A DNA stretch of 64,000 bases from Tautonia rosea (GCF_012958305.1 NZ_JABBYO010000008.1:1-64000); one strand, 5' to 3'. Shown: positions 16,588 through 63,710, counted from the stretch's first letter. The notes: generated by a model from the sequence alone, not told the origin. Program-made: numbers and translations.

Positions 16588-16782
16588 TTGAAGGACCTAA
16601 TGGGGGGCTGAGAATGTTCGATCGGGCGAACGAGGAGAAACGGGGCTTAAATGAACGAATGGAGAAGCACCAATCGGATCACAACGGGTCCGGGCGCACC
16701 CGAGAGGCCTGGGCGATTGTCTCGCCAGGTGAGACGACCCCCAAAGGTGGCATGCGCGAACAATGTCCCAGGTTTGGGGTAG

Positions 16783-16884
16783 CCCCGGTTGCTCGCCAAC
16801 CGGGGTCGCGGAGCGACGAGAGGTCTCGGTGCGGCCTCCCGCATCCTCGTGCGGCTGTGCCGCCCCGGTTGACGAGCAACCGGG
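16783..16884. repeat. two related hairpins in the flhA-flhF intergenic region
   Basis: CCCCGGTTGctcgcCAACCGGGG at 16783-16805 and CCCGGTTGacgagCAACCGGG at 16863-16884. Confidence 0.5.
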
Positions 16885-16939
16885 ACCACCCAGAGGCCTC
16901 GCTCAATCCTCGGACAGTGTTGTTGGATGCCCTCAAAGG

Positions 16940-20494: not shown

Positions 20495-20556
20495 TCGATG
20501 GTCGGGTCGTCATCGACCGTTGACGAAACCGCATTGATCTTCACGACTGGCAACCT

Positions 20557-22323: not shown

Positions 22324-22398
22324 GCCGATCGGCCTGTCCGACGGACCGCAATGATTGCCCCCGGGAGAGACGGCTCGCCGCTTTCCCGGGGGCTTTGT

Positions 22399-23070: not shown

Positions 23071-23173
23071 GGGTGGGCCTCCGCGCCGGCCCGGCGCTGG
23101 GAAGGGCGAAGTCGATCCGGATCGCCCGCGCGGGGCGAGGGGATCCGGAATCGGGAGCGGCTGTTGCCTCACC

Positions 23174-24199
23174 TCAGAACTGGTCGGCGCTGATGACCTC
23201 GCCCACCCTTCGGGTCGAGAGGGCCTGGTACACGGCGGGGAAGGCATTGCCGAAGATGTAGTCGCCGTCGCCGTTGAAGCTGACGCCGATCGGATCGTCG
23301 CAGCCGTTGCCGTTGGTCGGCCAGGTCTGGATGGTGTCCTTGATGAAGCGAACCGAGCCGTCGACGAAGGCATAGTTGCAGCCGCCGGGGTGGAAGCTGG
23401 CCGTGGCCTCGTACTTGACCCACCAGTAGACGCTGTCGTTGCAACGCTTGTAGGCGTTGGGCGGGAAGTTGGTGTCGAAGAAGGCGTCGGTCCAGAACCC
23501 GGCGTTCCACCAGAAGTAGCCGCCGTTGGTTTGCGGGAAGGCACTCACGGCTTTCTCGCCGAAGAGGAAGGTGTTGCTGGTGCCGTCTCGGATCTCGGCC
23601 AGCTTCACGGCGCTACCGTTGAAGAGTGTGCCGTTGTTGGCCTGGATGCGGCGTTGATAAAGCGCGGTGCCGTGCTGGGCGCTGAGGTGGGTCTGGTAGA
23701 AGGTGCCACGATTGCCGACGTAGCTGGTAAAGGCCTGCCGGGCCCCCGGGAACGACCAGTCGTAGTCGGCCGTGCTCAAGGGGGCGGAGTTGGCGGCGTC
23801 GGAGTCGCTCGGGCACCAGAGGGTCGAGATGCCGATGCCCGCGGCGGTGACGTTCGGCGGGTTCAGCCCGGCGACGGAGAAGTTATAGACATTGAATCCG
23901 CCCGCCTGCTCGAAGTAAGGGGCCATGATGACCAGGCTGTTCGCCCCCCACCAGAAGCCGCCGAAGGTCATGTCTCGGGCCGGCAGATGGCCCGGGGGCA
24001 GGCTGCCGAAGGTCGATTCGTAATTTGCCGCGGCCAGGGCAAGCTGCTTCAGGTTGTTGGTGCACTGCGCTCGGCGAGCGGCTTCACGGGCGGATTGCAC
24101 CGCAGGCAGCAGGAGCGCAATCAAGACGCCGATAATGGCGATGACGACGAGAAGCTCGATGAGGGTAAATCCGCGACGACGCGGAGAAGGCCGGAACAT
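23174..24199 (-). CDS. DUF1559 domain protein with prepilin-type N-terminal methylation motif (planctomycete H-X9-DG family)
   Basis: N-terminus [49 protein letters not shown] is the type IV pilin-like signal typical of DUF1559 proteins, followed by the conserved body. Confidence 0.8.
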
Positions 24200-24468
24200 G
24201 GAACGGTCCTTTCAGTGAGGACATCATCCGTGAGATGGAATCGAAACCAGGACGAAATGGGACACGAAGGTCCTTGAGGAAGATTGCGTCTTCCCATCGA
24301 GCACAACGCGCCGCGACACCCTCGTGGTGTCGGAACGATCGGGCCCGATCGGAGACGAAGCGTGGAGTTTCAAAGAGGGAGAGGTGAAGGGATCGGCAGG
24401 GTTGGCAGTTCGAACCGTTGTGGCCGAATGTCACGAACGGGTGTCACACGGTAAGGCCGTGGGAGCGA

Positions 24469-24747
24469 TCAGCGGCCGCCACGGCCGCCACGACCGCCGC
24501 CGCGTGCTTCTTCGCCGCCGCCGCCGAAATCGGCAGCACGGCCGCCCACCGGGGCATCGGCGGCAGGAGCGTCACCCGAGGCAGGTCCCGTGGCAGTTTC
24601 AGGAGCAGGGGCCGGGGCCGCATTCTCCTGAGCACATCCGCTGAAGATGCCGAGTCCGAGCACGGCCGAGAGAACCCAAACGCGGGACCAGAGAATTCGT
24701 CGAGCCACGGATGATACCTCCTGAAGCGATTTTCGCATGAATGTCAC
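24469..24747 (-). CDS. small Gly/Ala/Pro-rich lipoprotein
   Basis: Lipobox LGLGIFSGC followed by a low-complexity acidic/Gly-rich tail. Common partner of DUF1559 genes. Confidence 0.35.
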   Translation of the reverse strand: MTFMRKSLQEVSSVARRILWSRVWVLSAVLGLGIFSGCAQENAAPAPAPETATGPASGDAPAADAPVGGRAADFGGGGEEARGGGRGGRGGR

Positions 24748-25088
24748 ACACCTCGGAACCGCCTCGACCGGGAGCGCGTTCTTTTCTCATCTCGTCAGCA
24801 CAGGGGCCAGAGGCCCAACCGCTCACTGCGTTCGTTCCAGGCGGGATCACGAGGCCTTGATGCTGGGGAAAAAACGCGGACGTTGGCAGCAACGTGACCT
24901 CATCTTCTTCAAAGAGAGGACCGATTGACCAGAATACGCCGGTTCCCCCAGGTTCAATGAACCCCTCGATTATAGTGCAATCAACCAAGAACGCCAGCAC
25001 CTCTCAAATCTCTGGATGCTATTGCTTCGCGGCGAACCTGATCTTTCGTCCACTCTGAAGCAACCGGATCGAGACCGGCGCAATCGGC

Positions 25089-25874
25089 TCAGATCGGGTC
25101 GGCGGCCGAGGTGGGCTCGGTCTGCCGAGGGCTGAGCTGGCGCTCGCGGGCGGCTCGGCGTCGGGAGCGGAGGGAGGGGTCGCCGTCGTTCGAGCGTTGC
25201 TCCTCGCGGCGTTCCTCGGGGGTCATGCGGAGCTGGGCGTGAAGCCGACGGTACTGGATGGCGTAGTGAATCAGGCCGATGACGAGCATCGCCAGGCCGA
25301 GCTGCAAGAGGGCGCCGTGCAAGGCCGCCGCCAGTGACCGGAGCATCGCGGAACGATCGGCCGAGGCGGCCAGCGGATCGAACCGGGCGAGGATCGACCG
25401 GATCAGCCACCAGGTCAGCACGATCAGGACCGAGGCCCGGAGCACGATTCCGAGAGCCCGGCCGAGGCGATCGGCGGGCGAGCCGCCCCGGGCTCCGGAC
25501 CAGAGCCGAGCCGGATTGGGCAGCGCGAGCGACGGGACGAACAGCCCCCCCATCTGGAGTTGGTGCGCCAGCAGCGCCGCCAGAACCGGGGCAACGAGGA
25601 CCCCCAGCATCGGCACCGCCACCGCTCCGATCGCTGATCGGAGCTGGTGAACGAAGACCTGGGGATCGGCCAGCCCCGGAGTCTCCCCCGCCAGCGCGGT
25701 TTGCATCAGACCGAGAATGGCGTCGATCAAGGGGCCTCCCGAGGCTCCCAGCACCGCCACGGCGGCCAGAATGCCGACGCTGGCCGTCAGCTCGGGGCTG
25801 TGGGGCAGCATGCCTTGCTCGCGAGCCTCTCGGAGCCGCCGGGGAGACGGCTCAAGCGTGCGATCGTCGGACAT
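25089..25874 (-). CDS. flhB: flagellar export protein FlhB, N-terminal transmembrane domain only (C-terminal NPTH switch domain absent)
   Basis: N-terminal SDDRTLEPSPRRLREAREQGMLPHSPEL and four TM helices, then the linker RLHAQLRMTPEERREEQRSNDGDPSLRSRRRAARERQ. The ORF stops where the FlhB-C domain should begin. No NPTH-containing ORF was found in any frame of the window. Confidence 0.7.
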   Translation of the reverse strand: MSDDRTLEPSPRRLREAREQGMLPHSPELTASVGILAAVAVLGASGGPLIDAILGLMQTALAGETPGLADPQVFVHQLRSAIGAVAVPMLGVLVAPVLAALLAHQLQMGGLFVPSLALPNPARLWSGARGGSPADRLGRALGIVLRASVLIVLTWWLIRSILARFDPLAASADRSAMLRSLAAALHGALLQLGLAMLVIGLIHYAIQYRRLHAQLRMTPEERREEQRSNDGDPSLRSRRRAARERQLSPRQTEPTSAADPI

Positions 25875-25937
25875 GGCAGGAACCTCGATCGTCAGGACGA
25901 AACACGACAGCGGATCAACGGGCGAAGCACAGCCGCC

Positions 25938-26720
25938 TCAGGAGCCGGGAAGCAGGGTGAGCCAGGCCGAGGCCAGGCCCGAAAGGATCCAGGAGAGGCC
26001 GATCAGCAGGAGGATCAGGCCGAGGGTCACACGCACCGAAAGCCAGGTCGTGAAACTCGACAGAGCCGGAGCGCCTCGGATGAGCACGCCGACGGCGATC
26101 TGAGCCACCAGTAAGGACAGGGCGACCGGAGCCGCCAGCCAGAGGGCCAGCCCGAGCGCCTGGCCGATACTCTGAAACAGGGAGTGAACCAGCTCGGCCT
26201 CGATTCTGCCGGCCGGAGAGGCGGTCTCCCCCTCGGGCACAAACCCGAGGGCGTAACTGTCGGCCAGGGCGATGGTCAGTCGGATCGGCCCGTCGAGCGC
26301 GGCGAAGGTGGCCAGCGCGATCAGGCCGAAGAGGGTGGCCAGCGGCGTTTCCATCCCCTCGCTCGCTTCAGGAGCGAGCGAGGAGGCAGCCGAGAGGCCA
26401 GCCTGGGTACCGATCACCTCTCCCGCCAGCCGCGCCGCGGCGACGATGAGGCCGGCCCCCACCCCCAGCACGGCCCCGAGGGCCGCCTCGATCAGCACCG
26501 AACCTCCCAGTGCGAGCGCATCGGCCGGGGCAGCGATCCGAGGCCCGACCATCGGCACGACGGCCGAGGCAATGAGCACGGCGGCCGCCATCTTGGTGCG
26601 AACTCCCACCCCAGAGGCCACCGCCAGCCAGGCCAGTCCCCAGACCAGGCCGCTCGATCGGGCCAGCACCAGGACGAACGACGACGGCCCGCCGGTCATC
26701 TGAAGCAAGAGGTCGGGCAT
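25938..26720 (-). CDS. fliR: flagellar export protein FliR
   Basis: 260 aa polytopic membrane protein in fliPQR order, with FliR-like helices. Confidence 0.75.
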   Translation of the reverse strand: MPDLLLQMTGGPSSFVLVLARSSGLVWGLAWLAVASGVGVRTKMAAAVLIASAVVPMVGPRIAAPADALALGGSVLIEAALGAVLGVGAGLIVAAARLAGEVIGTQAGLSAASSLAPEASEGMETPLATLFGLIALATFAALDGPIRLTIALADSYALGFVPEGETASPAGRIEAELVHSLFQSIGQALGLALWLAAPVALSLLVAQIAVGVLIRGAPALSSFTTWLSVRVTLGLILLLIGLSWILSGLASAWLTLLPGS

Positions 26721-26795
26721 GGGAGCCTCGGGACCAGAAGAACGCTCGGGAGATCCGTCGGGAGGACCTCGACGGCAGGCAAAGGGAGGATGCGG

Positions 26796-27062
26796 TCAAA
26801 GCAGATCGGGGAAGCCACCGAAGGCCAGGGCCGCGAAGTCGAGCCAGCGCGCCAGCAGCCAGGGGAGCAAGAGGACCGAGACGGCGGCCACCCCGCCGAG
26901 CCGAGCGACCAGGCCGACCGTCGGCTCGTTCATCTGGGTCATGGCCTGGGCCATCGCGGCCAGGACACCGATGATGAGCGCCACCCCGAGCGGTCCGGCC
27001 GCAAGCAAGACGGCCACGCGCAAAGCTTCCCGGGTTGCGCCAAGCAGTACGGAATCGTCCAT
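26796..27062 (-). CDS. fliQ: flagellar export protein FliQ
   Basis: 89 aa with two TM helices. ALRVAVLLAAGPLGVALIIGVLAAMAQAMTQMNEPTV matches the FliQ signature (..QA.TQI.E.T.). Confidence 0.8.
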   Translation of the reverse strand: MDDSVLLGATREALRVAVLLAAGPLGVALIIGVLAAMAQAMTQMNEPTVGLVARLGGVAAVSVLLLPWLLARWLDFAALAFGGFPDLL

Positions 27063-27100
27063 CAGTTCATCCTCGACGGGTGAACAATTCTGGGAATCTT

Positions 27101-28075
27101 TTACCCACCGGCTCCCGAAGACCCCAGCGCGAAGGTCCGCAAGAGGCCATCGGCCACCAACCACCAGCCATCGACCAGCACGAACAGGGCCAGCTTCAAG
27201 GGCAAGGCCACCTGAGCCGGGGGGAGCATGATCAGCCCGGTCGCCGCCAGGACGGCCGAAACCACGAGATCGACCACCAGGAACGGCAAGTAAATGAGGA
27301 AGCCGATCCAGAGCGCCGTGGTGAGTTCGCTGATCAAAAACGCCGGGGCCACAACCCGCAAGGGAGGCGAAGCGACCGGCGAGGGGCTTCCGTCTCCGTT
27401 GGTCTCTGCCTCGGTCGCGATCGGGTCTGCGGCCGCATGGACGGAGAGGGCGTCGAGATAGTGACTGTGGCCGGTTCGGTGGATCTGATCGAGCATGAAG
27501 GTTTTGATCGGTCCGGAGCCGACCTGCCAGGCCTCCTCGACCGGCAGCTCGCCATCGGCGTAGGGGCGGATGGCGTCGCGATAGACGGACTCGGCGGCGG
27601 GAGCCATGACCATGGCCGTGAGGAGCAGCGAGAAGACCGTGAGCACCTGATTGCCGGGGACCTGAGGACTTCCGATCGCCTGACGCAGCAAAAGCAAGAC
27701 GATGTTGATTCGAACAAATGCCGTGGCCATCAACACCGCCACGGGAGCGAGCGAAACGGCGGCAAAGAGGCCGACCGTTCGGGCGACGCGCTCGACCTCG
27801 GCCCGAGCCGTGGGAGGGTCGGCCGACGTGTCGTCCGCAGGAGTTGAGGACGGATCGGACCCGGCGGCAGGATCGACGGTTGAGTCAACCGAGCCGGACT
27901 CGAAGGCGGGGGCCTCGGGGTCGACTCCGATCTGAAGGATCGCGGACGCCATCGGCGTGGTGTCGAGTGGCGAGGTGGCCGCCTCCTGTCCGGTGGAAGC
28001 GGACGAGAGCGCGAACAGCAAGGCCACTGACATGCACACACAGGCAGATCGAACGATGGTTCGTTTCATTTGCAA
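27101..28075 (-). CDS. fliP: flagellar export protein FliP
   Basis: Signal peptide followed by conserved FliP motifs LPLKLALFVLVDGWWLV and FLISELTTALWIGFLIYLPFLVVDLVVSAVL. Confidence 0.85.
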   Translation of the reverse strand: MQMKRTIVRSACVCMSVALLFALSSASTGQEAATSPLDTTPMASAILQIGVDPEAPAFESGSVDSTVDPAAGSDPSSTPADDTSADPPTARAEVERVARTVGLFAAVSLAPVAVLMATAFVRINIVLLLLRQAIGSPQVPGNQVLTVFSLLLTAMVMAPAAESVYRDAIRPYADGELPVEEAWQVGSGPIKTFMLDQIHRTGHSHYLDALSVHAAADPIATEAETNGDGSPSPVASPPLRVVAPAFLISELTTALWIGFLIYLPFLVVDLVVSAVLAATGLIMLPPAQVALPLKLALFVLVDGWWLVADGLLRTFALGSSGAGG

Positions 28076-28521
28076 TCGTCCTGCAATGCGTCGCCGGGGT
28101 GGTGCGAATTGGGCGTTGAGGGGGAGGGGTCGAGTTCCCCGAGGAGCGATGGGGCTCCCTGCGGGCCGACGCCGACGATCAGGGTCCGATCGCCGGCTCG
28201 GAGCAAATAGACCGCGTGCCTTCCCGTCAGATGAGCCCGGCCGACCACGCGCAAGACCCCCGCGGACCCTGTCGGTTTTCTCCGGGTCCCGAGCACGATC
28301 CCAACGCCGACGATCGCCAGGACGGCCGTGAGCACAAGGCTCACGGTGGCTGGGTCGCCAATCCCCCCCCTGCCCCGCAACGCCTCGGCGGCCGGAGCGC
28401 CGGGCTTGACCGCCGGTTCCTGAGCTGCCAGTGCTGGGGCAAGGATCAGGACCAGCAGGAAGACCAGACTCGGCCGGGCCATTCGGGTCGAAGATCCACG
28501 GTGGTCTGCGCCTTGCATCAT
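28066..28521 (-). CDS. fliO: flagellar protein FliO-like (start uncertain)
   Basis: Small single/double TM protein directly upstream of fliP, with VLRVVGRAHLTGRHAVYLLRAGDRTLIVGV resembling the FliO C-terminal region. Confidence 0.5.
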   Translation of the reverse strand: MMQGADHRGSSTRMARPSLVFLLVLILAPALAAQEPAVKPGAPAAEALRGRGGIGDPATVSLVLTAVLAIVGVGIVLGTRRKPTGSAGVLRVVGRAHLTGRHAVYLLRAGDRTLIVGVGPQGAPSLLGELDPSPSTPNSHHPGDALQDDCK

Positions 28522-28637
28522 CGTGCGCCGGTCGGTTCGGGGGAAAAACGGGCGGGGATGTCGCGATCGGGCGATGAAGACCATGATTGATTCGCGTCGT
28601 GCGGGCTCCGGTCGCTCGGCATTCTTCGACGATCGTT

Positions 28638-28695
28638 CGGCCCCCTCACCCGGCCTTGCGGGCACCCTCTACCCGGTGGGCGGGGGAGAGGGATG
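28638..28695. repeat. second copy of the GC-rich palindromic element
   Basis: CCCCCTCACCCGGCCTTGCGG...GGGGGAGAGGG. Similar to 12878-12986. Confidence 0.35.
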
Positions 28696-28731
28696 AGCAT
28701 GCGTAGGGTCCGTCGTGCAGGAGGTACCCTA

Positions 28732-29298
28732 CTAGACGAAGATGGACTCCCGGCCGGCGGGCTCGGGGAGGGTCAGTTGTCCTCGGTCGTGCAGGCGGCG
28801 GAGGTGCTCGGCCAGTTCGGACTGGGCCGACTCGGCATCGTCGAGCCGAAAGGGTCCAAGGGATTCCATGGTCTGGTGAAGGGCGGTGGACGACTCGGGC
28901 GGCAAGGCCTCAAGCACCTTCTGGCGTACGGGACGAGCGGCACCGGCGAGGGCCAGGGCCCAGACGGTCGCGTCTTCGTCGTGGTAGGCGGTCCGAAGGT
29001 CGCGGTCGCTGAGCTTGACCACGTCGTCGAAGGCGAACCAGAGTCGGCGGAGTCCGAGGTCGAAGAACTCGTCGAGCACGCGGCGCTGCTCGACCGGGTC
29101 GATGCGGTCGAGCCGGGCGATCTCGAGCGTGACAGCCTCGACGGCGGCGCGATCAAGCTCGGCGAGCAGTTTCGAGGCGAGGGGTTGTTCCAGGCTCACC
29201 ACGAGGATCGCCGCCTTGCGGATGGGGGGGATCGGATCGCCAGGGCGGCCAGAGGTTGCTGAGACATGCTCAGGACCGTCAAACGCGGTTGTGCTCAT
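28732..29298 (-). CDS. fliG: short FliG-like flagellar motor switch protein (188 aa, middle domain apparently missing)
   Basis: N-terminal AAILVVSLEQPLASKLLAELD (FliG-N helix) and C-terminal ...TVWALALAGAARPVRQKVLEALPPESSTALHQTMESLGPFRLDDAESAQSEL (FliG-C torque-helix region). Follows fliF with a 4-bp overlap. Confidence 0.5.
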   Translation of the reverse strand: MSTTAFDGPEHVSATSGRPGDPIPPIRKAAILVVSLEQPLASKLLAELDRAAVEAVTLEIARLDRIDPVEQRRVLDEFFDLGLRRLWFAFDDVVKLSDRDLRTAYHDEDATVWALALAGAARPVRQKVLEALPPESSTALHQTMESLGPFRLDDAESAQSELAEHLRRLHDRGQLTLPEPAGRESIFV

Positions 29299-30869
29299 GT
29301 GTCTGCTCCCTGTTCAACCCATCGTCGGAGCACGGCCGCGGCCGCGGAGGGATCACTCCTGACCAGTTCTCGGACACGATCGGCCGGGCCAGGAGTGTCG
29401 TCGTCTGGCATGGGAGGCAGATGCGGACGAGACGTGCCGGCCATCGCCGACGAGGCACGCAAGGCGGGCCGACGGCCGGAGAGCCAACCGCTGGCCGCGG
29501 CAATCAAAGCAAGCCCGGCCACGCCTCCGAGCACGGCCGCGGGGACCCACCAGAGGGCAGCTTCCTGGCGAGCCTCACGCACGATCGGGCGCGGCGTGTC
29601 GGGTTCATTGGGCAAGGGTTGCATGAGAATCTGCACACGTCCGAGCGATGTCTCGGGAATCACGTGAGCAATAATCGTGCGCACATAGTCCTCGGTGAAC
29701 GCGACGAAGCGATCAATCGCGTTTTGCTTTGGCTCGCGAGCGTTGAGAAACGCATCGTGCCGCGCCAGGTAGTACGAGGCCGGAACCTTGACCAGCACAT
29801 TCGCCCGAGCGGGAGGCGGCTCGGCGGGGACCGGGCTCGACGCGGCGGGGGGTTCGGAGGCCATCGATTCGGGGGGCGGATCGAGCGACAGCGGGCCGTT
29901 CGGAACCACCTTAACGATCATCGACGAGGAGGGGGGAGCGGGCGAAGCGAGCGGAGTCGGCTGAAACGTAGGGGCGTCCTCGTCGATCGTGGGGACGACC
30001 GGCGCGGGAGGATCGGAGTCGATCGGCGTGTCGAGGCGAACCTCAACCAAGGCGCCGTCGATGACTGGGGAGAGCTGTTCGGCAATGGCCGCTTCCCAGC
30101 TCCGGGCCAGGGCTTCGGCTCTCATGCTGCGGGCGAAACCGGGGTCTCCGGCCTTGAGCAAGGCGTCTCCCTGGGCGTCAATGATGGTCACGTCGTCGGC
30201 CTTCAACTGGGTGAAGGTGGCGATGACGTTGAGCACGCGATCGACGGTGGTGGGTGAGAGGGACCGGCTGCGATCGGCCCGGAGATGGACCCCAGCGCGG
30301 GCGGCTTCAGGTCGGGCGAAGGGGCGGCCGGGTTTCGGCATCAGGACGACGACGGCCGACTGGATGCCGGGGATTTCCTCCAGGGCACGTTCGATTTTGC
30401 GGGCCTCGGCGCGGAGATGGATCTCGGTCCGTTCGGTGGCGTCGGCCATGAGAGGGGGGCGAGTCGGGTCTTCCACTTCCTGAATCAAGGCACGGCGGCT
30501 CAACCCGAGCTGGTCGAGCACCTTGAGCGCCTCGGCGAGACGGGCGGGAGGAACGGAGACGCGACCCCGGTCATCGGCCTGAGCGTCGATTCCCTTGAGG
30601 GCCAGCTCGTTGAGCAGGGCCTCGGCTTGATCGGGAGGAAACGCTCGACCCTGATCGAGCCACTCGGTCTGATCGGCTTTGGGGGTGAGCAGCGACGAGG
30701 AGACCAGGGCAACGATGGCGACGAGAATGGCGAGCGCGGCCACGCGGTAGGGGGCCTGCTGTCGATCGCGGAGCCAGCCTGAGAGCCCCTTCAGCCGCTC
30801 TCCCAGCCGACGCCTCCCGGACCCCGGGGCTGATCTGGCCCCGCCCGGCTCGCGATCTTCGCTCCGCAT
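29295..30869 (-). CDS. fliF: flagellar MS-ring protein FliF
   Basis: 524 aa. N-terminal TM, YscJ/FliF ring-building motifs (IQSAVVVLMPKPGRPFARPEAARAGVHL, DDVTIIDAQGDALL) and a C-terminal TM. Confidence 0.8.
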   Translation of the reverse strand: MRSEDREPGGARSAPGSGRRRLGERLKGLSGWLRDRQQAPYRVAALAILVAIVALVSSSLLTPKADQTEWLDQGRAFPPDQAEALLNELALKGIDAQADDRGRVSVPPARLAEALKVLDQLGLSRRALIQEVEDPTRPPLMADATERTEIHLRAEARKIERALEEIPGIQSAVVVLMPKPGRPFARPEAARAGVHLRADRSRSLSPTTVDRVLNVIATFTQLKADDVTIIDAQGDALLKAGDPGFARSMRAEALARSWEAAIAEQLSPVIDGALVEVRLDTPIDSDPPAPVVPTIDEDAPTFQPTPLASPAPPSSSMIVKVVPNGPLSLDPPPESMASEPPAASSPVPAEPPPARANVLVKVPASYYLARHDAFLNAREPKQNAIDRFVAFTEDYVRTIIAHVIPETSLGRVQILMQPLPNEPDTPRPIVREARQEAALWWVPAAVLGGVAGLALIAAASGWLSGRRPALRASSAMAGTSRPHLPPMPDDDTPGPADRVRELVRSDPSAAAAVLRRWVEQGADT

Positions 30870-31091
30870 AATCGCCCCGCCCTTTTTTTTGCTCGATCCG
30901 CGGTGTGCAAGGCTCGAACCGAATCGAATGATTCAGAGCCAGGCCATCCGATCGGATGCGACCACAGCGATGCCTCGGGGTTGAAGGTGCTCATCGAGGA
31001 CGGCGAGAGCCGGCCGAGCGCCATTCATTCCGAGCGGAGCGAGTTATCCGACAAACCCCGGGTCTTGTCAATCGCGGCAGCAGGTCCGGGG

Positions 31092-43688: not shown

Positions 43689-44978
43689 TCAAGACGGATC
43701 CATCTCGTCGTTGGTGCTGCCAATCCCCAGGCATCGGGGAAGCCAGGCGCGGGTCGATCGGCTCGCGGCGATCAGGAAGGGAACCTTGGGTAAGGCGGCC
43801 ACCATGCGGAGGTCGTCGGTCAGCGTGCTCCGGTCGCTTAAAAAACGGACCAAGGGGTCGGCGTCCACCCCGTCGAACATCCGAGCGAACAAATCGGGAG
43901 CGCGGGAGGGTCGATCAAGGAGCGCCCGAAGGAACACGGCGTCAAAGAAATCATATTTCCGATCGGCGATTGGTGCATCGAGCCGTGCGCGGGTCGATCT
44001 GTTGCCCGCGATCTGTTCCGCGATCCGCCGACACTGCCGCTGGATCCGGACGAAGGCATACCCGCTGGATGGCCTCGCCGCTCCTCCAGCCAGGCCAATC
44101 GGCACGATCCGGGCTCCTGGCGCGGTGTTCGGCCGATGGGTTGTCATGGGAATGCGTCCGGCTTCTTCTTCGATCACCTCGTACCGCTCGACGTCGAAGC
44201 AGCGATCGAGGTAGGAGGCAATCTCCTCTCGGTGTCGACTCGCCGAAACCGGATCGGGAAAGAGGTACGTGTTCTCGACCAGCGCTTCGCGATCGGACAG
44301 TGGAAGGACATAGACGAAATGAGGCCCATCCGACTGATCGACACGGAAGTCCATAAGGATTGGACAGGCGGGATCAAACACCGAGTGCTCGGTCCGAACC
44401 GTCTGGCCGAGGAAGTGCTGGACCATGGCGGCCTCTCCCGAACGCGCGGCTTCGGCCAGGGCTGCCGGTCGCCGAGCACTGGTATAGGCCCGGACACCGC
44501 GAATCGTCTCCTGAGCCAGATCGACCGCAACGGTCTCGGCTTCGAGGGTCGTCGCTCGGATCGACGCGCCGAGGTACGGGTCGATCGCGTCGTCCCCGGC
44601 CAGGCGATCGAGAATGCGGCGGTAGACGTCGATCGACCGCAAGCGTCGGTATCGGTAGCGCGTCGACTGCGATTCGATCCAGTTCCCCCGCTCATCCACG
44701 ACGGCCCATCGAGTCCAGGCGTGGGTGGCGAGGTCGTCAAAGGGGGTCGGCTCCACATCCCAGTAGCACCAGGTACGGTCGTTCGCGTACCCCGGCCGCC
44801 GATCGACCAGCGCCATCGACCCGCGATCGCCGAGCGACCGCAAGTGCCAGGCCAGGCTCAGCCCGGCACATCCGGCTCCGAGGATCACATGATCGTAGGT
44901 CGTCGTCGACGGCCGCGGCGTTCGGTGCCGGGGCACGAGGATCGAGTCGCGGGAATCACTGATCGCGGTTTGGGGCAT
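43689..44978 (-). CDS. crtY: lycopene cyclase family protein (CrtY/CrtL-type, FAD-dependent)
   Basis: Rossmann motif YDHVILGAGCAGLSLAWHL at the N-terminus. Lycopene-cyclase family blocks (RTWCYWD, FVYVLPLS, ENTYLF). Start set at the ATG at 44978. Confidence 0.65.
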   Translation of the reverse strand: MPQTAISDSRDSILVPRHRTPRPSTTTYDHVILGAGCAGLSLAWHLRSLGDRGSMALVDRRPGYANDRTWCYWDVEPTPFDDLATHAWTRWAVVDERGNWIESQSTRYRYRRLRSIDVYRRILDRLAGDDAIDPYLGASIRATTLEAETVAVDLAQETIRGVRAYTSARRPAALAEAARSGEAAMVQHFLGQTVRTEHSVFDPACPILMDFRVDQSDGPHFVYVLPLSDREALVENTYLFPDPVSASRHREEIASYLDRCFDVERYEVIEEEAGRIPMTTHRPNTAPGARIVPIGLAGGAARPSSGYAFVRIQRQCRRIAEQIAGNRSTRARLDAPIADRKYDFFDAVFLRALLDRPSRAPDLFARMFDGVDADPLVRFLSDRSTLTDDLRMVAALPKVPFLIAASRSTRAWLPRCLGIGSTNDEMDPS

Positions 44979-44992
44979 CCTGGGTGGACTGA

Positions 44993-46063
44993 TCACGACC
45001 GCACCTCCCCTGCCCTCGGCCGATCCCAGACCGCCTGCATGCGGTCCATCCCCAGCACGACGATGACGTGAGGCAGTGTCAATGCGCTGACCATCGCCAA
45101 CGCTGCCAGGCCGAAATCGGCCACGTCTCCGGTTCTGGCTCGCACGAACCACCAAAGGCCCCCCATCATGGCCAGGGCGATCAACGTGGTCGGCAGGGTG
45201 GAACGATGGAACCGGGCCAGTGCGGTGAGCCATTGGCCGGCACGGGCCGCCGATCGGGTGGGCTCGGCCACCGGCAGCAAACGCACGACATGCCGAACCG
45301 AATGCCAGGCATTGAAATAAACTCCCATCGCCAGAACCGGCGGCACGACCGAAAACAGGACGACCAGCAACGCCGAACCCGCCGCCTCGCTCAGCGCAAC
45401 GGCTCGGCGATCGGGACGTCGCCAGGCTTCCACGGCGAGCGTTGCCAGATGAAAAGCAACGAGAAGTCCCACCGCGACCAGACCGGCTTTCCGAATCGAT
45501 TCCGGAATGGCCCAGCGGGCCGAATCGCCAAAGAGACGGCCGGTGAGGGCATTGGCCGCCTCGGCGAACATGGCGTCGAAGACCAGCACCGGAAGGGCGA
45601 TGGGCACCACCCCCCGAACCAGAAGCAGCAGCACCGACCGCCAGGCCGGCCATTCGCCGGTGTGGTCAGGCGAATCATCTCCCTCGACTTGCAGCCCGAA
45701 CCGGTCGACTCGGCTCCAGTAGAGATCGCCCTGGCCAAAGTGGAATGCTGCCACGACCAGAAACCCAATCAGAGCCGCCATGGGCGCGATCCACCAAAGC
45801 ATCAAGACAACCGCGATTGCCCCCAAATACCCCGCAAGAAACCCCAGGCCGCCCGGCGACCGATCGCTCTCGGTAGGAATCCGATGATCGAGCGCTCCGT
45901 GGGGAATCCCGAACACGAGGAGCCCCACCCCCCAGGGTGCCCACTGCACCGCCGGCCACTCGGCAACCTCAGGGGCAAGTGCGACCAGCCCCAGCGCAGC
46001 GGTACAGGCCAGAATCCCTGGAACCGATGCCATCAGGCTCATCGACGCAGATAGATATGACAT
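44993..46063 (-). CDS. blh: Brp/Blh family beta-carotene 15,15'-dioxygenase (retinal synthesis)
   Basis: Polytopic membrane protein with conserved His clusters FGIPHGALDH and AAFHFGQGDL, typical of Blh/Brp. Adjacent and divergent to a rhodopsin gene. Start set at MSYLSASM (46063), because the annotated upstream start lies inside a tandem repeat. Confidence 0.65.
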   Translation of the reverse strand: MSYLSASMSLMASVPGILACTAALGLVALAPEVAEWPAVQWAPWGVGLLVFGIPHGALDHRIPTESDRSPGGLGFLAGYLGAIAVVLMLWWIAPMAALIGFLVVAAFHFGQGDLYWSRVDRFGLQVEGDDSPDHTGEWPAWRSVLLLLVRGVVPIALPVLVFDAMFAEAANALTGRLFGDSARWAIPESIRKAGLVAVGLLVAFHLATLAVEAWRRPDRRAVALSEAAGSALLVVLFSVVPPVLAMGVYFNAWHSVRHVVRLLPVAEPTRSAARAGQWLTALARFHRSTLPTTLIALAMMGGLWWFVRARTGDVADFGLAALAMVSALTLPHVIVVLGMDRMQAVWDRPRAGEVRS

Positions 46064-46187
46064 GTGACCCTCAACTCGGGTCGGGGAACCCCATAAAGAA
46101 TCCGGTCGTTCAATGGAAGTGGCTGCATCCCCGGCGATGTTGTAGACATGACTCCGTCGTCGTCGAGCCTTGAGTCGAAGCGAACGC

Positions 46188-46220
46188 AGAAACATGTCCC
46201 CTTGAGAAACATGTCCCCTT
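46188..46220. promoter_or_regulatory. exact tandem direct repeat 2 x AGAAACATGTCCCCTT (1-bp spacer) in the blh/rhodopsin divergent promoter region
   Basis: agaaacatgtcccctt g agaaacatgtcccctt. Each copy contains the palindrome ACATGT. Confidence 0.6.
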
Positions 46221-46526
46221 CTGTCTGCAACCGCACGCTCATCACAATTCAGCCGGGTTTTCCCGGCGATTTTCTCTTGACGACGGATTCCCCTCGACTA
46301 TGCCACCCTGTAGGAAGTGCAACATACCGGCGACCACTCCGGACGAACGTCTCGCACGGCGTGGGTTCCGCCCATCACATTATCGCCGGAAGCCTTCCGC
46401 ATCGACCAACGACATCTCGGCGAGTCTTGAAACGTTCCGACTGTGCGGACCGGGTGGTTCTCGGTCTGCGCACGTTCGCCCTTGTCGTGAACGGTCACAT
46501 CTTCCCGCACCCGGAGGAACGACGCC

Positions 46527-47315
46527 GTGGAACTGTCCCTTTCCCAGTTCGAGCTGGTCTCGAACATGTTTTCCTTTACGATCGCCGCGATGGGAGCGGC
46601 GGCCCTGTTCTTCTTCTTCACCAGCTTTCAGATCCACCCGAAGTACCGGCTCGCCGTCCTGGTCTCGGGTGTGGTCGTCGCCCTGGCGTGTTACCACTAC
46701 GTCCGGATCTACGATAGCTGGCACGACGCTTATGCCCTGACCGAGACCGAATCGGGCGTGGTCTTCCAGGAAACGGCCACGCCGTTCAACGACTACTACC
46801 GCTATGCCGACTGGATCTTGACCGTGCCGTTGCTTGTCATCGAGCTGATTGCCGTCATGGCCCTGGCGGCCCCCGTGGCTCGCTCGCTCTCGTGGCGGTT
46901 GGGCGGGGCGGCTGTCTTGATGATCATCCTCGGCTACCCTGGTGAGATTTCCAGCGACAATGGGACACGATGGCTCTTCTGGGGCCTGAGCATGCTCCCA
47001 TTCTTGTATATCCTGTTTGTCCTGCTGACCGAGCTGTCGACCTCGCTCGAACGCCAACCGAGTGAGGTCCGGGGACGAATCAGCTTTGCTCGATACTTGA
47101 TTGTGATCACCTGGTCGTTCTACCCGATCGCCTACCTCGCCCCGATGATCGGCCTCTCGGGAGCAAGCGCGGAAGTCGCCTTGCAGGTGGGCTACTCGAT
47201 TGCCGACGTGCTGGCCAAGGCTGCGTTTGGTCTGTACATCTACTCGATTGCCGCGACGAAGTCGGAGCTGGAGACGGGCGAGGCTCTCTCGGCACACTCC
47301 GAGTACGCCGCCTGA
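46527..47315 (+). CDS. microbial rhodopsin, xanthorhodopsin-like DTE proton pump
   Basis: Helix C RYADWILTVPLLVIEL gives D/T/E at BR positions 85/89/96. Helix G SIADVLAKAAFG carries the Schiff-base Lys. The N-terminus LVSNMFSFT...ACYHYVRIYDSWHDAY resembles the xanthorhodopsin/actinorhodopsin clade. GTG start at 46527. Confidence 0.85.
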   Translation: MELSLSQFELVSNMFSFTIAAMGAAALFFFFTSFQIHPKYRLAVLVSGVVVALACYHYVRIYDSWHDAYALTETESGVVFQETATPFNDYYRYADWILTVPLLVIELIAVMALAAPVARSLSWRLGGAAVLMIILGYPGEISSDNGTRWLFWGLSMLPFLYILFVLLTELSTSLERQPSEVRGRISFARYLIVITWSFYPIAYLAPMIGLSGASAEVALQVGYSIADVLAKAAFGLYIYSIAATKSELETGEALSAHSEYAA

Positions 47316-47669: not shown

Positions 47670-49058
47670 ATGCCCGGTCCGTCGCTGTTCGATTCCCTGC
47701 CTGATCCTCATGACCGTGATCCAAAGGCGACCGCCGGGGGAGTTGGTCTGCCCAGCGCTCCACCGGTGCTCAGTGTCACCGAACTGACCAGCTTGATCCG
47801 CGAGCTGCTCGAATCGGCATTTGCCGAGGTGGCCGTATGCGGCGAGATCTCCAACCTTTCCCGCCCGAAGTCGGGCCACGTCTACTTCGACATCAAGGAC
47901 GAAGGGGCCCGCATCCGGGCCGTCCTCTGGCGGACTCAGGCCGCCCGGGTTCCTTTTGATCTGGAAAACGGCCTGGCAGTGCGAGCATGGGGCAGCGTCG
48001 ATCTGTACCCGCCGCACGGCTCGTATCAGATCAATGTTCGGACCATCGAGCCGGAAGGGATTGGGCCGCTCGAACTGGCCTTCCGGCAGCTCTGCGACCG
48101 CCTCCGGATCGAAGGTCTGTTCGACCCGGCCCGCAAACGCCCCCTTCCGAAGTTTCCCCGGCGAATCGTGGTCGTCTCCAGCCCGACCGGCGCGGCGGTC
48201 CGAGACATCCTGACGATCACCGGTCGGCGCTGGCCGTCGGCCGAGATCCTGATCGCCCCGGCCAAGGTTCAAGGCCAGGGGGCGGCCGAGGAAGTGGCCG
48301 CCGCCATCGCCATGGCCAATCGCCTCCGCCAGGTCGATCTGATCCTCGTCGGCCGAGGCGGCGGCAGCCTGGAAGACCTCTGGGCATTCAATGAAGAAGT
48401 GGTGGCGCGGGCAATCGTTGCTTCCCGCGTTCCGATCGTTTCCGGAGTCGGGCACGAGACCGACCTGACGATCGCCGACCTCGTGGCCGACTTGCGCGGC
48501 CCGACCCCCAGCGGCGCGGCCGAACTGGCCGTGCCCGACGCTCGTGATGTGCTGGATCGGCTTGAAACGCTTTCTGGTCGAATGGCCCGCGCGCTGGCGC
48601 TCCGATCGAGCGACGCTCGATCGCGGCTCGAATCGCTGGCTGATCGGTCCGATCGGGCGATGGCTCGCCTGCTCGATCGTCGCCGCGATCGCCTGGCCGC
48701 CCTGGCCGGTCAGCTTGATGCCCTCAGTCCGCTCGCCGTTCTTTCCCGAGGCTACAGCCTGACGCAACGGCTCGACGACGGCCGAGTCGTGCGAGCGCCC
48801 GACGATGCCCGGCCCGGGACGGTGATCCGGACTCGGCTCGCCTCGGGATCAATCCTCAGCAGGGTCGAAGCGAGCCCAACCGACGGGGAACCCGCGCACG
48901 ACGAGCTGAACGCCTCTTCGGCCGACACCAAGCGGCCTGCCCGCCGCGACCGCCGCCCCGCCCCAGGTGCCGCGGCCCCCGTGCCGACTGATCGCCCCCG
49001 CAAGCGCCTCGCCCCCGGAGGCTCCGGCCCCTTCCGCACCGATCCCGAACGGAGCTGA
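47670..49058 (+). CDS. xseA: exodeoxyribonuclease VII large subunit
   Basis: N-terminal OB-fold (LSVTELTSLIRELLESAFAEVAVCGEISNLSRPKSGHVYFDIKDEGARIRAVLW) and catalytic region. xseB follows. Confidence 0.85.
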   Translation: MPGPSLFDSLPDPHDRDPKATAGGVGLPSAPPVLSVTELTSLIRELLESAFAEVAVCGEISNLSRPKSGHVYFDIKDEGARIRAVLWRTQAARVPFDLENGLAVRAWGSVDLYPPHGSYQINVRTIEPEGIGPLELAFRQLCDRLRIEGLFDPARKRPLPKFPRRIVVVSSPTGAAVRDILTITGRRWPSAEILIAPAKVQGQGAAEEVAAAIAMANRLRQVDLILVGRGGGSLEDLWAFNEEVVARAIVASRVPIVSGVGHETDLTIADLVADLRGPTPSGAAELAVPDARDVLDRLETLSGRMARALALRSSDARSRLESLADRSDRAMARLLDRRRDRLAALAGQLDALSPLAVLSRGYSLTQRLDDGRVVRAPDDARPGTVIRTRLASGSILSRVEASPTDGEPAHDELNASSADTKRPARRDRRPAPGAAAPVPTDRPRKRLAPGGSGPFRTDPERS

Positions 49059-49062
49059 TCTG

Positions 49063-49359
49063 ATGCCCGACGACCCTCAGACCTCCCCAACGGCTTCTGA
49101 ACCGAATCCCCCGTCCTTCGAGGTCGCCCTGGGACAGATCGAGGCGATTGTCTCCGATCTGGAACGGGGAACGCTCGACCTTGATGCCTCGCTGGAACGC
49201 TACGAACGCGGAGTCCGCCTGCTCGCGCAGTGCCGCACCACGCTCCAAACCGCCGAGCGGCGGGTCGCCCTGCTCACCGGCACCTCTGAGGAGGGAGACG
49301 CCCTGACCACTCCCTTCGACGATCCCTCCGCCCTGGCGGCCGACCCTGACGACGATTGA
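49063..49359 (+). CDS. xseB: exodeoxyribonuclease VII small subunit
   Basis: FEVALGQIEAIVSDLERGTLDLDASLERYERGVRLLAQC is the canonical XseB helix-hairpin. Start set at the ATG at 49063. Confidence 0.75.
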   Translation: MPDDPQTSPTASEPNPPSFEVALGQIEAIVSDLERGTLDLDASLERYERGVRLLAQCRTTLQTAERRVALLTGTSEEGDALTTPFDDPSALAADPDDD

Positions 49360-60427: not shown

Positions 60428-62389
60428 TCAGCCGGCCGAGCGGCCTGAGGCGGCGGTCGATTCGTCGGCCTCGCCGGTGATGCCCAGATGCTGGACAAGG
60501 TCCAGGCAGGCCCGGACGATGCCATCGACGTCGAGGCCGACCTCGGCAAGCTGCTCGTCGCGCTCGGCGTGCATGACAAATCGATCGGGCAAGCCGAGCC
60601 GGCGGACGTGCGAGGTGTTCCGACCGGCCTCGTTGGCGGCTTCCAGCACCGCCGAGCCGAAGCCGCCCATCAGGCAGCCTTCCTCAACCGTGAGGACGAA
60701 GCCGCATTCATCCAGGGCCTTGAAAACGGTCGCCGTGTCGAGCGGCTTGGCAAAGCGGGCGTTGATGACGCCGATCCGAAGGCCGTGCTCGTTGCGAAGT
60801 CGTTCGGCCGCGCGGAGGCAGTCGGGGACCTGGGCACCGAGGGCGAGCAACATCCCATCGGTTTCCCATTCGAGGACCTCGGCCTGGCCCAGCTCGATCG
60901 GCTGCGGGTCGCGCTCGACTTCTTCGAGGTTGGCCTTCGGATAGCGGATTGAGACGGGGTGATCGTGTGCCAGGGCCCAGTCGATCATCGGGGCCACGTC
61001 TCGGGCATCGCCGGGGGCCATCACAACCATGTTCGGGAAAGGACGCATGTAGGCAAGATCATACGATCCGTGGTGCGTCGGGCCGTCCGAGCCGACCAGG
61101 CCCGCGCGGTCCATGCAGAAGACGACCGGCAAGTCCTGAAGGGCGACCTCCTGGAAGATATGGTCATATCCGCGCTGGAGGAAGGTGCTGTAAATGTCCA
61201 CCACCGGCCGGGCGCCGGCCTTGGCCATGCCGGCGGCGAAGGTGACGGCGTGCGCCTCGCAGATGCCGACGTCGAAGAAGCGGTCGGGGAACGTCTCGCG
61301 AATCTTCTGGAGCTTGTTCCCCTCGCACATGGCGGCGGTCAACACGGCAACCTTCGGATCACGGCCGAGGGCCGTGTAGAGCGCGTCGGCCACGGCGTTC
61401 GTGTACGCCTTGGTCGAGGAGGTTTTCAAGGGAATGATCCCCTCCTCGCAGCGCTGGAAGGGAGCGGGAGCGTGGAAGGAGACGGGGTCCTTCTCCGCCG
61501 GTTCGAACCCGCGGCCCTTGTCGGTCAACACGTGCAGGAGGATCGGCCCCTCCATCGCCTTGACCTTTTCCAGGTACGACTGAAGTGTCTTCAGATCGTG
61601 CCCATCGACGGGGCCAAGATAGGTAAAGCCCAGTTCCTCGAAGATCATGCCGCCGTGGAAGCTCGCTTTCACCGCGTCCTTGAACTGCTGGAGCATCCGA
61701 TCGGCCTGGTCGCCAACCAGCGGAATGCTGGGCAGGAGCTTGCGGACCAGCTTGTTGGCCCGGTTGTACTCAGGGGTCATGCGGGCCTTGTCGAGGTAGT
61801 AGGCAATGCCCCCCACTCGCGGACAAATCGACATCTTGTTATCATTCAAAATCACAAGATAACGCTTGCCGTGGCTGTGGCCTGCGGCGTTGTTCAGGGC
61901 CTCGTAGACGACTCCCGAGGGGAAAGCGCCGTCGCCGATCACCGCCACGCTGTAACGATCGGGGTGGCCGGTCACGATGTCGCCGGCGTGCAAGCCCAGG
62001 GCCGTCGACGGGGCGCAGCCGGCGTGGCCGGTCATGAACAGGTCGTAGGGGCTCTCACTCGGGTTGGGGTAGCCCATCAGGCCGCCTTTGGTCCGAATCG
62101 AGTGGATCTGATCGGCGCGTCCGGTGATGAGCTTGTGGGGGTAGATCTGATGGCCGGTGTCCCAGATGAGCCGGTCCCGGGTAAAGTCGAAGGCCAGGTG
62201 CAGGGCAAGGCACAGTTCGACAACACCGAGATTGCTGGCGAAGTGGGCCGAGCGGCGTCCGACGACGCCGATGAGCTCCTCGCGCATCTCGGAGGCCAGG
62301 CGCTCGAGGTCGTCCTCCGAGAGCCTGTGCAGGTCGGCCGGCGATTGGATGCGGGGGAGGATCGGACTCGGGGGGGTGCTCATCGTCAA
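60428..62389 (-). CDS. dxs: 1-deoxy-D-xylulose-5-phosphate synthase
   Basis: TPP-binding GHAGCAPSTALG and GDGAFPSGVVYEALNNAAG, plus transketolase pyrimidine-binding and C-terminal domains. 653 aa. Confidence 0.9.
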   Translation of the reverse strand: MTMSTPPSPILPRIQSPADLHRLSEDDLERLASEMREELIGVVGRRSAHFASNLGVVELCLALHLAFDFTRDRLIWDTGHQIYPHKLITGRADQIHSIRTKGGLMGYPNPSESPYDLFMTGHAGCAPSTALGLHAGDIVTGHPDRYSVAVIGDGAFPSGVVYEALNNAAGHSHGKRYLVILNDNKMSICPRVGGIAYYLDKARMTPEYNRANKLVRKLLPSIPLVGDQADRMLQQFKDAVKASFHGGMIFEELGFTYLGPVDGHDLKTLQSYLEKVKAMEGPILLHVLTDKGRGFEPAEKDPVSFHAPAPFQRCEEGIIPLKTSSTKAYTNAVADALYTALGRDPKVAVLTAAMCEGNKLQKIRETFPDRFFDVGICEAHAVTFAAGMAKAGARPVVDIYSTFLQRGYDHIFQEVALQDLPVVFCMDRAGLVGSDGPTHHGSYDLAYMRPFPNMVVMAPGDARDVAPMIDWALAHDHPVSIRYPKANLEEVERDPQPIELGQAEVLEWETDGMLLALGAQVPDCLRAAERLRNEHGLRIGVINARFAKPLDTATVFKALDECGFVLTVEEGCLMGGFGSAVLEAANEAGRNTSHVRRLGLPDRFVMHAERDEQLAEVGLDVDGIVRACLDLVQHLGITGEADESTAASGRSAG

Positions 62390-63300
62390 CGGTCCCTTTC
62401 CAGCAGGTCCAGGGCCAGGGCCCTCAGTCGGGTGCCGCGGTCGCCCAGCGGCTCCAGTGCCGCGACGGCGTCCTCGGCAACCTGGCGGGCTCGGCGGCGG
62501 CTGCCCTCAATGCCGAGCAGGCCGGGGTAAGTCCACTTACCCAGGCCAGAGTCTTTGCCGACACGTTTGCCCAGCTTGGCCTCGTCGCCTTGCACGTCGA
62601 GCAGATCGTCGATGATCTGGAAGGCCAGGCCGACCCCTCGACCGTAGCGGTCGAGCGCGAGCAACTCCTCCTCATCGGCTCCGATGGCAATGGCCCCCAT
62701 GCGAAGGCTCGCCCGGAGCAAGGCGCCGGTCTTGCGGCGGTGAATGGCTTCCAGCGCCTCGACGGTGGCATCAGAGCGCCCTTCGGCCTCCAGGTCGGCC
62801 ATCTGGCCACCCACCATGCCGCTCGGTCCGCAGGCTTCGGCCAGTTCCAGGCAGCAGCGGGCCGCGGCCTCGCCGGGCTGGATGTCTCGGGCGATGACCT
62901 CGAAGGCGAGCGCCTGCAGGGCGTCTCCGGCGAGGATCGCGGTGGCTTCGTCAAAGGCGCGATGGCAGGTCGGGCGGCCTCGGCGGAGGTCGTCGTCATC
63001 CATCGCGGGCAGGTCATCGTGGATCAAGGAATACGTATGCACCATCTCCAGGGCACAGGCCACGGGCATCGCCTGATCGGGTTCCCCCCCAACGGCCTCG
63101 GCGGCCATCAAGGCGAGAATGGGGCGCAACCGCTTGCCGCCTCCAAGCAGGCTGTACCGCATGGCCAGCAGGAGCCGAGAGGGGCATTCGGCGTCGGACA
63201 GACGGTCGTCGGGCAGGTAGCGGTCCAATGCCTCGTCCACTCGCCGCCGGGCATCCCCGAGGAACGCGGCGAGGTCAACGGCGGTGCTCGGGCTACTCAT
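62386..63300 (-). CDS. ispA: polyprenyl diphosphate synthase (farnesyl/geranylgeranyl diphosphate synthase)
   Basis: FARM LIHDDLPAMDDDDLRRG and SARM FQIIDDLLD. Start set at MSSPST (ATG at 63300). 4-bp overlap with dxs. Confidence 0.85.
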   Translation of the reverse strand: MSSPSTAVDLAAFLGDARRRVDEALDRYLPDDRLSDAECPSRLLLAMRYSLLGGGKRLRPILALMAAEAVGGEPDQAMPVACALEMVHTYSLIHDDLPAMDDDDLRRGRPTCHRAFDEATAILAGDALQALAFEVIARDIQPGEAAARCCLELAEACGPSGMVGGQMADLEAEGRSDATVEALEAIHRRKTGALLRASLRMGAIAIGADEEELLALDRYGRGVGLAFQIIDDLLDVQGDEAKLGKRVGKDSGLGKWTYPGLLGIEGSRRRARQVAEDAVAALEPLGDRGTRLRALALDLLERDR

Positions 63301-63710
63301 GGGCGGAAGGTTCTGAAGCGAGAGGGGAACGACCCGCCGGTCGACCGGCCCTTGGGTCTTGTGCCTGTTGCGAATCGACTTCCCATCGGGATCGCGCTTC
63401 GGCGGGCTTCCGGACATTGTTGGCATTCGTGCCTCGATTGTCCACCCGCCAGCGGCACCCGCCCCGGAGGAATCTTTCCCGACCGATCCCCCCCAGCCTT
63501 CCCAGAAGGCCGGAGCCTCGGCCCAACCGGCAAACTCGTCTTGGATTCGCGTCCTTGGGCCGGCACACCTCCGGATCAAGACCGCCGGGAAGGGCCGCAA
63601 TCCCCCACGAGTGAGTTGCTTGACCACCCCAAGAGCCGATCGCTACAGTCAGGCAAACGGGCGGCGGGATCGGTTCGACGCCGCGATCCGCAACGCTGCG
63701 AGGCCCCGAC

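Follow-up and report, generated by a model that had tools for sequence, protein, structure and literature searches.

A predicted xanthorhodopsin-clade proton pump with linked blh and crtY genes in the planctomycete Tautonia rosea

Described relatives and the Tautonia rhodopsin

The closest solved counterparts of the rhodopsin described here are Gloeobacter GR (PDB 6nwd) and psXR from an Antarctic Pseudanabaenaceae (PDB 9wfa), both of which carry a glycine at the fenestration site (G178 and G172, respectively) and bind carotenoid antennas, and the same clade includes the xanthorhodopsin (XR) of Salinibacter ruber (PDB 3ddl). The protein compared with them is encoded by Tautonia rosea (Isosphaeraceae, Planctomycetota) in a stretch of 64,000 nucleotides (GCF_012958305.1, NZ_JABBYO010000008.1:1-64000), referred to below as the window, in which region 43689-47315 holds three genes, namely crtY and blh on the minus strand and the rhodopsin gene on the plus strand, each with an open reading frame at the positions given in Table 1. 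Judged from its sequence, this locus is probably a three-gene retinal-phototrophy unit that would provide T. rosea with a retinal-only, light-driven outward proton pump.

GR and psXR, the best matches with 52-53% identity and template modelling (TM) scores of 0.88-0.91, share with the Tautonia rhodopsin the Asp/Thr/Glu (DTE) motif, the counter-ion His, the tuning-site Leu, and the B-C beta-hairpin, but differ from it at the antenna site, where Tautonia has Trp152, Met156, Ser197, and Phe187. The pump residues of S. ruber XR are likewise all matched (H62 = H57 and D236 = D227), whereas its G156 is replaced by Trp in Tautonia and the D-E and F-G loops of XR carry additional insertions. Retinal genes are not linked to XR loci of subgroup I, that of S. 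ruber among them (Vollmers 2013, PMC3646047), unlike the Tautonia locus with its adjacent blh and crtY. A combination of the DTE motif, an aromatic fenestration block, and linked retinal-synthesis genes, as found in Tautonia, has been described for non-fenestrated environmental XRs (Chazan et al., bioRxiv 10.1101/2022.08.24.505090) and for subgroup II XRs, which mostly carry Trp (PMC3646047).

The rhodopsin of Isosphaera pallida (E8QX23 / ADV64062.1), annotated as such since deposition of the genome, is 61% identical to that of T. rosea and belongs to the same family-level clade with the same divergent blh-crtY unit, but its fenestration residue is Phe and not Trp, its N terminus is extended by 46 residues, and other genes flank the unit. 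Linkage of opsin and chromophore genes is also found in the "crtEIBY-blh" photosystem clusters, the full form of which occurs in loci of Planctomycetota, Verrucomicrobiota, Acidobacteriota, and Melainabacteria; compared with these, the Isosphaeraceae form is cut down to crtY and blh and is divergent from the opsin gene.

The Pfam profile Bac_rhodopsin (PF01036) spans the whole Tautonia protein (2.3e-36, 125.8 bits against a cutoff of 24.6), and every peptide quoted in an earlier, sequence-only reading of the window was found in it, including RYADWILTVPLLVIEL (residues 92-107) and SIADVLAKAAFG (residues 224-235). Motif positions were read from a MAFFT alignment of the query with BR, XR, GR, Kin4B8, psXR, and its 128 closest homologues. 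The BR reference was checked against the PDB and matches 1o0a exactly, while those of XR, GR, Kin4B8, and psXR were drawn from the HMMER alignments of the PDB search; the published numbering was reproduced in these references for XR (H62, D96, T100, E107, G156, and K240), GR (D121, E132, G178, and K257), and Kin4B8 (G153). In this alignment, the DTE motif that had been proposed at BR positions 85/89/96 falls on D95/T99/E106 without any register shift, the helix G Schiff-base lysine is K231 in the column of BR K216 in all 128 homologues, and the Leu predicted at the BR-93 tuning position is L103; neither a misplaced lysine nor a shift of the D/T/E assignment by one turn was seen. All seven columns anchored on BR (R92, D95, T99, L103, E106, D227, and K231) are invariant in the 128 homologues, as is H57, the XR-type His partner of the counter-ion Asp, in a 40-sequence alignment.

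Membership of the xanthorhodopsin clade, also advanced in the sequence-only reading, is borne out by the PDB sequence scores and by a neighbour-joining tree, in which the relatives are XR, GR, TR, and actinorhodopsin rather than PR, NaR, ClR, or BR. The best PDB matches are psXR (4e-75), GR (3e-74), and Salinibacter XR (1e-66); chains of the XR clade cover E-values from 1e-75 to 1e-57, while no other rhodopsin type does better than 6e-29. The AlphaFold (AF2) model (predicted local distance difference test score, pLDDT, 93.4; predicted TM score, pTM, 0.89) shows seven helices together with an XR-type B-C beta-hairpin, and superposes on GR, psXR, XR, and Kin4B8 with TM scores of 0.88-0.92, or 0.84-0.92 once thermophilic rhodopsin and Rhodoluna actinorhodopsin are included. 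From these features, we infer that the protein should be a DTE-type outward proton pump of the XR clade which absorbs green light.

Briefly, in the proposed mechanism lycopene made elsewhere in the genome would be converted to beta-carotene by CrtY and cut at the 15,15' bond by Blh, yielding two all-trans retinal molecules; retinal would then form a protonated Schiff base with Lys231. Upon absorption of green light, the Schiff base proton would be transferred to Asp95, predicted to pair with His57 and Thr99 in a counter-ion complex completed by Arg92 and Asp227, and Glu106 on the cytoplasmic side would then reprotonate the Schiff base. On balance, protons would be pumped outward and would add to the proton-motive force of a heterotrophic cell. 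By analogy, the pump should work as GR or XR does, minus the carotenoid, and the locus leaves known rhodopsin mechanisms unchanged.

The presence of the orthologous three-gene unit in I. pallida, the only moving member of the Isosphaeraceae, which shows phototactic gliding (PMC7716859), would also fit a mainly photosensory protein, feeding for instance phototaxis of this type, instead of an energy-conserving pump. Such a role is considered highly unlikely for the Tautonia rhodopsin, which keeps both its carboxylate donor E106 and a full DTE/His pump signature, all at invariant positions; neither in Tautonia nor in I. pallida does a transducer, HAMP, or MCP gene adjoin the rhodopsin gene, and the Isosphaeraceae, including Tautonia plasticadhaerens and Tautonia sociabilis, have been described as non-motile (PMC7716859).

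The carotenoid antenna site

The sequence-only reading had left undecided whether the glycine equivalent to XR Gly156, which makes the antenna pocket, is retained. The alignment settles this point: the position is occupied by Trp152, and among the 128 closest homologues this column holds Trp in 120, Phe in eight, and Gly in none. The surrounding slot is altered as well, with Met at the XR T160 position in Tautonia and in all 128 homologues, where the four fenestrated references and BR all have Thr, with a BR-like Ser197 at the position of XR G201, and with F187 at that of XR N191; the carotenoid-slot residues I201, Y203, and M207 are kept. Because of Trp152 at the glycine site and the changed helix E/F carotenoid slot, no carotenoid antenna is expected, and the protein should be a non-fenestrated XR-clade pump that binds retinal only. 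It belongs to the XR clade, but is not a xanthorhodopsin in the strict, dual-chromophore sense.

The assignment of Trp152 depends on the register of helix E, which is ungapped because the downstream block S-x-x-P-F-x-Y-I-L is common to BR (WWAISTAAMLYIL), XR, GR, and Kin4B8. The local sequence FWGLSMLPFLYIL resembles the "WG" of the XR clade, but its Gly comes one position late. A one-residue indel that would restore the "WG" register (query FWGLS against XR LWGFLS) was considered and is excluded by the same S..PF.YIL block. According to published studies, replacement of the fenestration Gly with Trp or Phe leads to loss of carotenoid binding in GR and Kin4B8, and only about 55% of environmental XRs possess this Gly, the remainder having mostly Trp or Phe (PMC3646047; bioRxiv 10.1101/2022.08.24.505090).

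In a rough neighbour-joining tree of 110 sequences, which is crude, has no support values, and contains no subgroup II sequences, the query belongs to a W/F branch whose sister is the Gly-bearing XR/GR/Kin4B8 branch, the identity to the Gly-bearing GR/XR group being about 50%. The closest solved relatives (43-53% identity) are all antenna-binding or fenestrated members of the XR clade, and the cells, pink according to the species name and to pink relatives (PMC7716859), presumably bear carotenoids, both of which would be in keeping with a genuine xanthorhodopsin with two chromophores, retinal and a carotenoid antenna, like Salinibacter XR, GR, Kin4B8, and psXR. Nevertheless, the Trp at the fenestration position in a helix E register shared with BR, the substitution of each of XR T160, G201, and N191, and the damaging effect of Gly-to-Trp/Phe exchange in GR and Kin4B8 render an antenna in the Tautonia protein extremely improbable. 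As a natural non-fenestrated XR-clade comparator with about 50% identity to the solved antenna-binding proteins, the Tautonia rhodopsin is useful as a mutagenesis partner (W152G) in antenna studies.

Retinal synthesis and the source of lycopene

That blh and crtY are transcribed divergently from the rhodopsin gene, as first read from the sequence, agrees with the gene calls, with the profile matches, and with the locus of Tautonia marina. Blh matches Pfam BCD (PF15461) with 9.4e-60 and TIGR03753 with 187 bits against a curated cutoff of 95, and its residues His55, His108, His254, and His258, the iron-ligand histidines of the family, are kept, together with His332, in 29-31 of 31 aligned homologues. 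CrtY matches Pfam Lycopene_cycl (PF05834) with 5e-62 and 210.6 bits against a cutoff of 23.4; its N-terminal GxGxxG FAD/NAD fold has invariant G34 and G36, and all highly conserved positions are kept. Membership of the lycopene cyclase family is thus secure, while the beta-cyclase specificity is one that we infer from the linkage and overlap with blh. Named CrtY homologues come from T. rosea, T. marina, an Isosphaeraceae metagenome-assembled genome (MAG), and I. pallida, all of them rhodopsin carriers, and then from Rubrobacter; this limitation to rhodopsin-bearing genera is consistent with a crtY dedicated to the opsin.

The description of the module as "complete" in the sequence-only reading stands for the steps from lycopene to retinal, for which crtY and blh are present, but not for the preceding ones, as the window contains no crtE, crtB, or crtI. 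Where lycopene comes from is the single real gap in the completeness of the module. The genes dxs and ispA, which had also been noticed, are present in the window according to their Pfam matches, about 11 kb beyond xseA/xseB and on the opposite strand; they concern isoprenoid supply upstream of the pathway and lie outside the module. A tblastn search of the window with CrtE, CrtI, and CrtB of another locus (L031) returned the IspA-type synthase as its sole match, with 33% identity. This polyprenyl synthase was ruled out as a CrtE by its IspA-type first Asp-rich motif (FARM), YSLIHDDLPAMDDDDLRRG, and by the Tyr at position -5. The motif is identical to that of E. coli IspA, and a Tyr five residues before it is, by the chain-length rule, the mark of a farnesyl diphosphate (FPP) synthase and not of a geranylgeranyl diphosphate synthase.

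In addition to the crudeness of the tree, several points weigh against the interpretation of the locus as a working retinal-phototrophy unit. CrtY remains under the NCBIfam cutoffs (81 bits against 215.2 for TIGR01789 and 119.5 bits against 209.5 for TIGR01790); crtE, crtB, and crtI were found neither in the 64-kb window nor at a distance of up to 10 kb in the Isosphaeraceae-type loci examined; and the model planctomycete P. limnophila produces C30 carotenoids from squalene (PMC9907078). The supply of lycopene is therefore only presumed, since C30 carotenoids cannot give retinal.

A Tautonia without any C40 lycopene pathway would not make its own retinal, and the unit would be inactive or would rely on an outside supply of carotenoids or retinal by phototrophic neighbours. 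The missing crtE, crtI, and crtB, which lie beside the rhodopsin gene in thirty loci from other phyla, the squalene route of the model species, and the confinement of named CrtY homologues to rhodopsin-bearing genera would all suit such a situation. It is held to be unlikely, since crtY is under purifying selection, with a ratio of nonsynonymous to synonymous substitution rates (dN/dS) of 0.17, and its 4-nt overlap with blh is conserved; the only substrate of CrtY is a C40 psi-end carotenoid, so that selection for the gene argues for available lycopene. Moreover, C40 saproxanthin-type carotenoids have been reported for other planctomycetes (cited in PMC12673574).

A related proposal, to which only a small probability is given, starts from the fact that the phylum's only genetically characterised carotenoid route is the squalene-derived C30 one. 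If T. rosea and I. pallida have no canonical crtB or crtI, lycopene or beta-carotene might come from an unrecognised route or from neighbouring phototrophs; separately, the pump could serve as the photoreceptor for the unexplained phototactic gliding of I. pallida through proton-motive force or energy sensing.

In I. pallida (CP002353.1; locus L082, 1-1243), two adjacent SQS_PSY-family genes are situated about 5.5-8 kb past crtY. They may encode the squalene enzymes HpnC/HpnD or a phytoene synthase, and one of the two proteins is only 27% identical to a CrtB from a rhodopsin cluster.

Conservation, gene models, and neighbouring features

The three genes assigned to the retinal-phototrophy unit are retained in T. 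marina, whose rhodopsin differs from that of T. rosea in five residues (98% amino-acid identity) and whose locus has the same order: GDSL lipases, AMP-ligase, acyltransferase, PMT glycosyltransferase, crtY, blh, and rhodopsin, followed by xseA, xseB, an enolase-superfamily protein, and an M20 peptidase. Between the two species, dN/dS is 0.029 for the rhodopsin gene, 0.10 for xseA, 0.17 for crtY, 0.19 for the PMT glycosyltransferase gene, and 0.21 for blh. The rhodopsin, blh, and crtY genes are all under purifying selection, and the opsin gene is the most constrained of the neighbourhood.

A module of this kind had been called uncommon among Planctomycetes, which is overstated. An opsin gene divergent from blh-crtY is found in nine loci, comprising six contigs of the genome collection, T. 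marina, I. pallida, and the metagenome contig L085; the six contigs (L001-L004, L006, and L007) are labelled as Isosphaeraceae/Planctomycetales MAGs in five cases and as Ca. Kuenenia in one. Relatives of the rhodopsin with up to 71% identity, none of them from a Tautonia record, were obtained in the scan of this collection. In two other Planctomycetota MAGs and in other phyla, the opsin gene is followed by a co-directional crtE-crtI-crtB-crtY-blh series, and an "Isosphaera-like" hot-spring XR together with a carotene-cleaving enzyme has been known from a metagenome since 2017 (Thiel et al. 2017, PMC5459899). The rhodopsin/blh-crtY unit is a family-wide feature of the Isosphaeraceae, not a rarity. 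In the literature consulted, no link between Tautonia and rhodopsin was found, and a 2025 review on a century of Planctomycetota research mentions neither rhodopsin nor retinal (PMC12673574). With the present assignment, the cultured planctomycetes T. rosea, T. marina, and I. pallida gain a clear, testable capacity for retinal phototrophy.

Three contigs, two of them among these loci, deserve mention. On the Planctomycete-like metagenome contig L085 (5443-8485), two paralogous XR-type opsins adjoin the divergent blh-crtY pair; they share 64% identity, and each has a DTE motif as well as Trp at the fenestration. The contig labelled Ca. Kuenenia (L006; CAMCFM010000407.1, 4521 bp, from a Ca. Kuenenia stuttgartiensis MAG) carries an Isosphaeraceae-type rhodopsin/blh-crtY unit and has probably been mis-binned into the MAG of an anammox organism. 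On a third contig of 3.3 Mb (L084, 4830-11179), crtE, crtI, crtB, opsin, blh, and crtY follow each other on the same strand; the CrtY encoded there shares 47% identity with that of Tautonia, while the opsin is of a different type, with only 26% identity and without the XR N-terminal signature. This pairing of a related CrtY with a different type of opsin shows that cofactor genes and opsin have been recombined between lineages.

Table 1. Positions of genes, codons, and other features in the T. rosea window, counted from its first nucleotide
Feature	Position	Strand	Remarks
Rhodopsin gene	46527-47315	+	262 aa; GTG start, TGA stop; XR clade, DTE motif; Pfam PF01036
blh (Brp/Blh beta-carotene 15,15'-dioxygenase)	44993-46063	-	356 aa; Pfam PF15461, TIGR03753
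crtY-type lycopene cyclase gene	43689-44996	-	435 aa; GTG start; Pfam PF05834
Divergent intergenic region, blh to rhodopsin (promoter/5' untranslated region)	46064-46526	.	
H57 codon	46695-46697	+	Column of XR H62 / GR H87
R92 codon	46800-46802	+	Column of BR R82
D95 codon	46809-46811	+	Column of BR D85, XR D96
T99 codon	46821-46823	+	Column of BR T89, XR T100
L103 codon	46833-46835	+	Column of BR L93, XR L104
E106 codon	46842-46844	+	Column of BR D96, XR E107
W152 codon	46980-46982	+	Column of XR G156, GR G178, Kin4B8 G153, psXR G172, BR W138
M156 codon	46992-46994	+	XR T160 position
S197 codon	47115-47117	+	XR G201 position; BR-like
D227 codon	47205-47207	+	Column of BR D212, XR D236
K231 codon	47217-47219	+	Column of BR K216, XR K240
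xseA + xseB	47670-49359		Directly downstream of opsin
dxs	60428-62506	-	Pfam DXP_synthase_N 2.9e-99
IspA-type FPP synthase gene (stop-to-stop open reading frame)	62386-63642	-	Pfam polyprenyl_synt 1.4e-59
Flagellar export/regulatory gene cluster	13167-30932		

The flagellar cluster contains genes for a FliA-like sigma factor, a MinD/FlhG-like ATPase, FlhF, FlhA, FlhB, FliR, FliP, and FliF, and also holds a short FliG-like open reading frame of 193 aa. The genes behind the description of the organism as "flagellated" are therefore present in the window, but the trait itself was deduced from genes only, and relatives are described as non-motile.

In the intergenic region between blh and the rhodopsin gene, which is 84% identical to its T. 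marina counterpart with long conserved blocks, a GGAGGA Shine-Dalgarno sequence is located at 46513-46518, 8 nt ahead of the rhodopsin GTG. No sigma-70 consensus promoter was found in this region, and terminator-like matches fall within coding sequence; a search for Rfam families in it gave none, a single snoRNA match at E 0.96 being noise. A perfect 16-nt direct repeat, AGAAACATGTCCCCTT, is present at 46188-46203 and 46205-46220 (17 nt from start to start). It was rejected as an operator since T. marina has a single copy, and is probably a recent duplication and not a conserved site.

With respect to the gene models, the open reading frames of 654 aa and 400 aa initially assigned to crtY and blh extend too far. 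The crtY start at 44996 was adopted because the RefSeq protein of T. rosea has 435 aa, and the blh start at 46063 because the T. marina gene call has 356 aa; an alternative crtY start is the ATG at 44978. At GTGA, the GTG start of crtY and the stop of blh overlap by 4 nt, and the two genes overlap in the same way in T. marina. All 262 residues of the rhodopsin match RefSeq WP_315852046.1, "bacteriorhodopsin-like [Tautonia rosea]", and CrtY shows 100% identity to the T. rosea RefSeq "lycopene cyclase family protein" (435 aa). The G+C content of the opsin gene (0.606) is lower than that of blh (0.652), crtY (0.647), and the whole window (0.647), although its third-position G+C is nonetheless high at 0.82.

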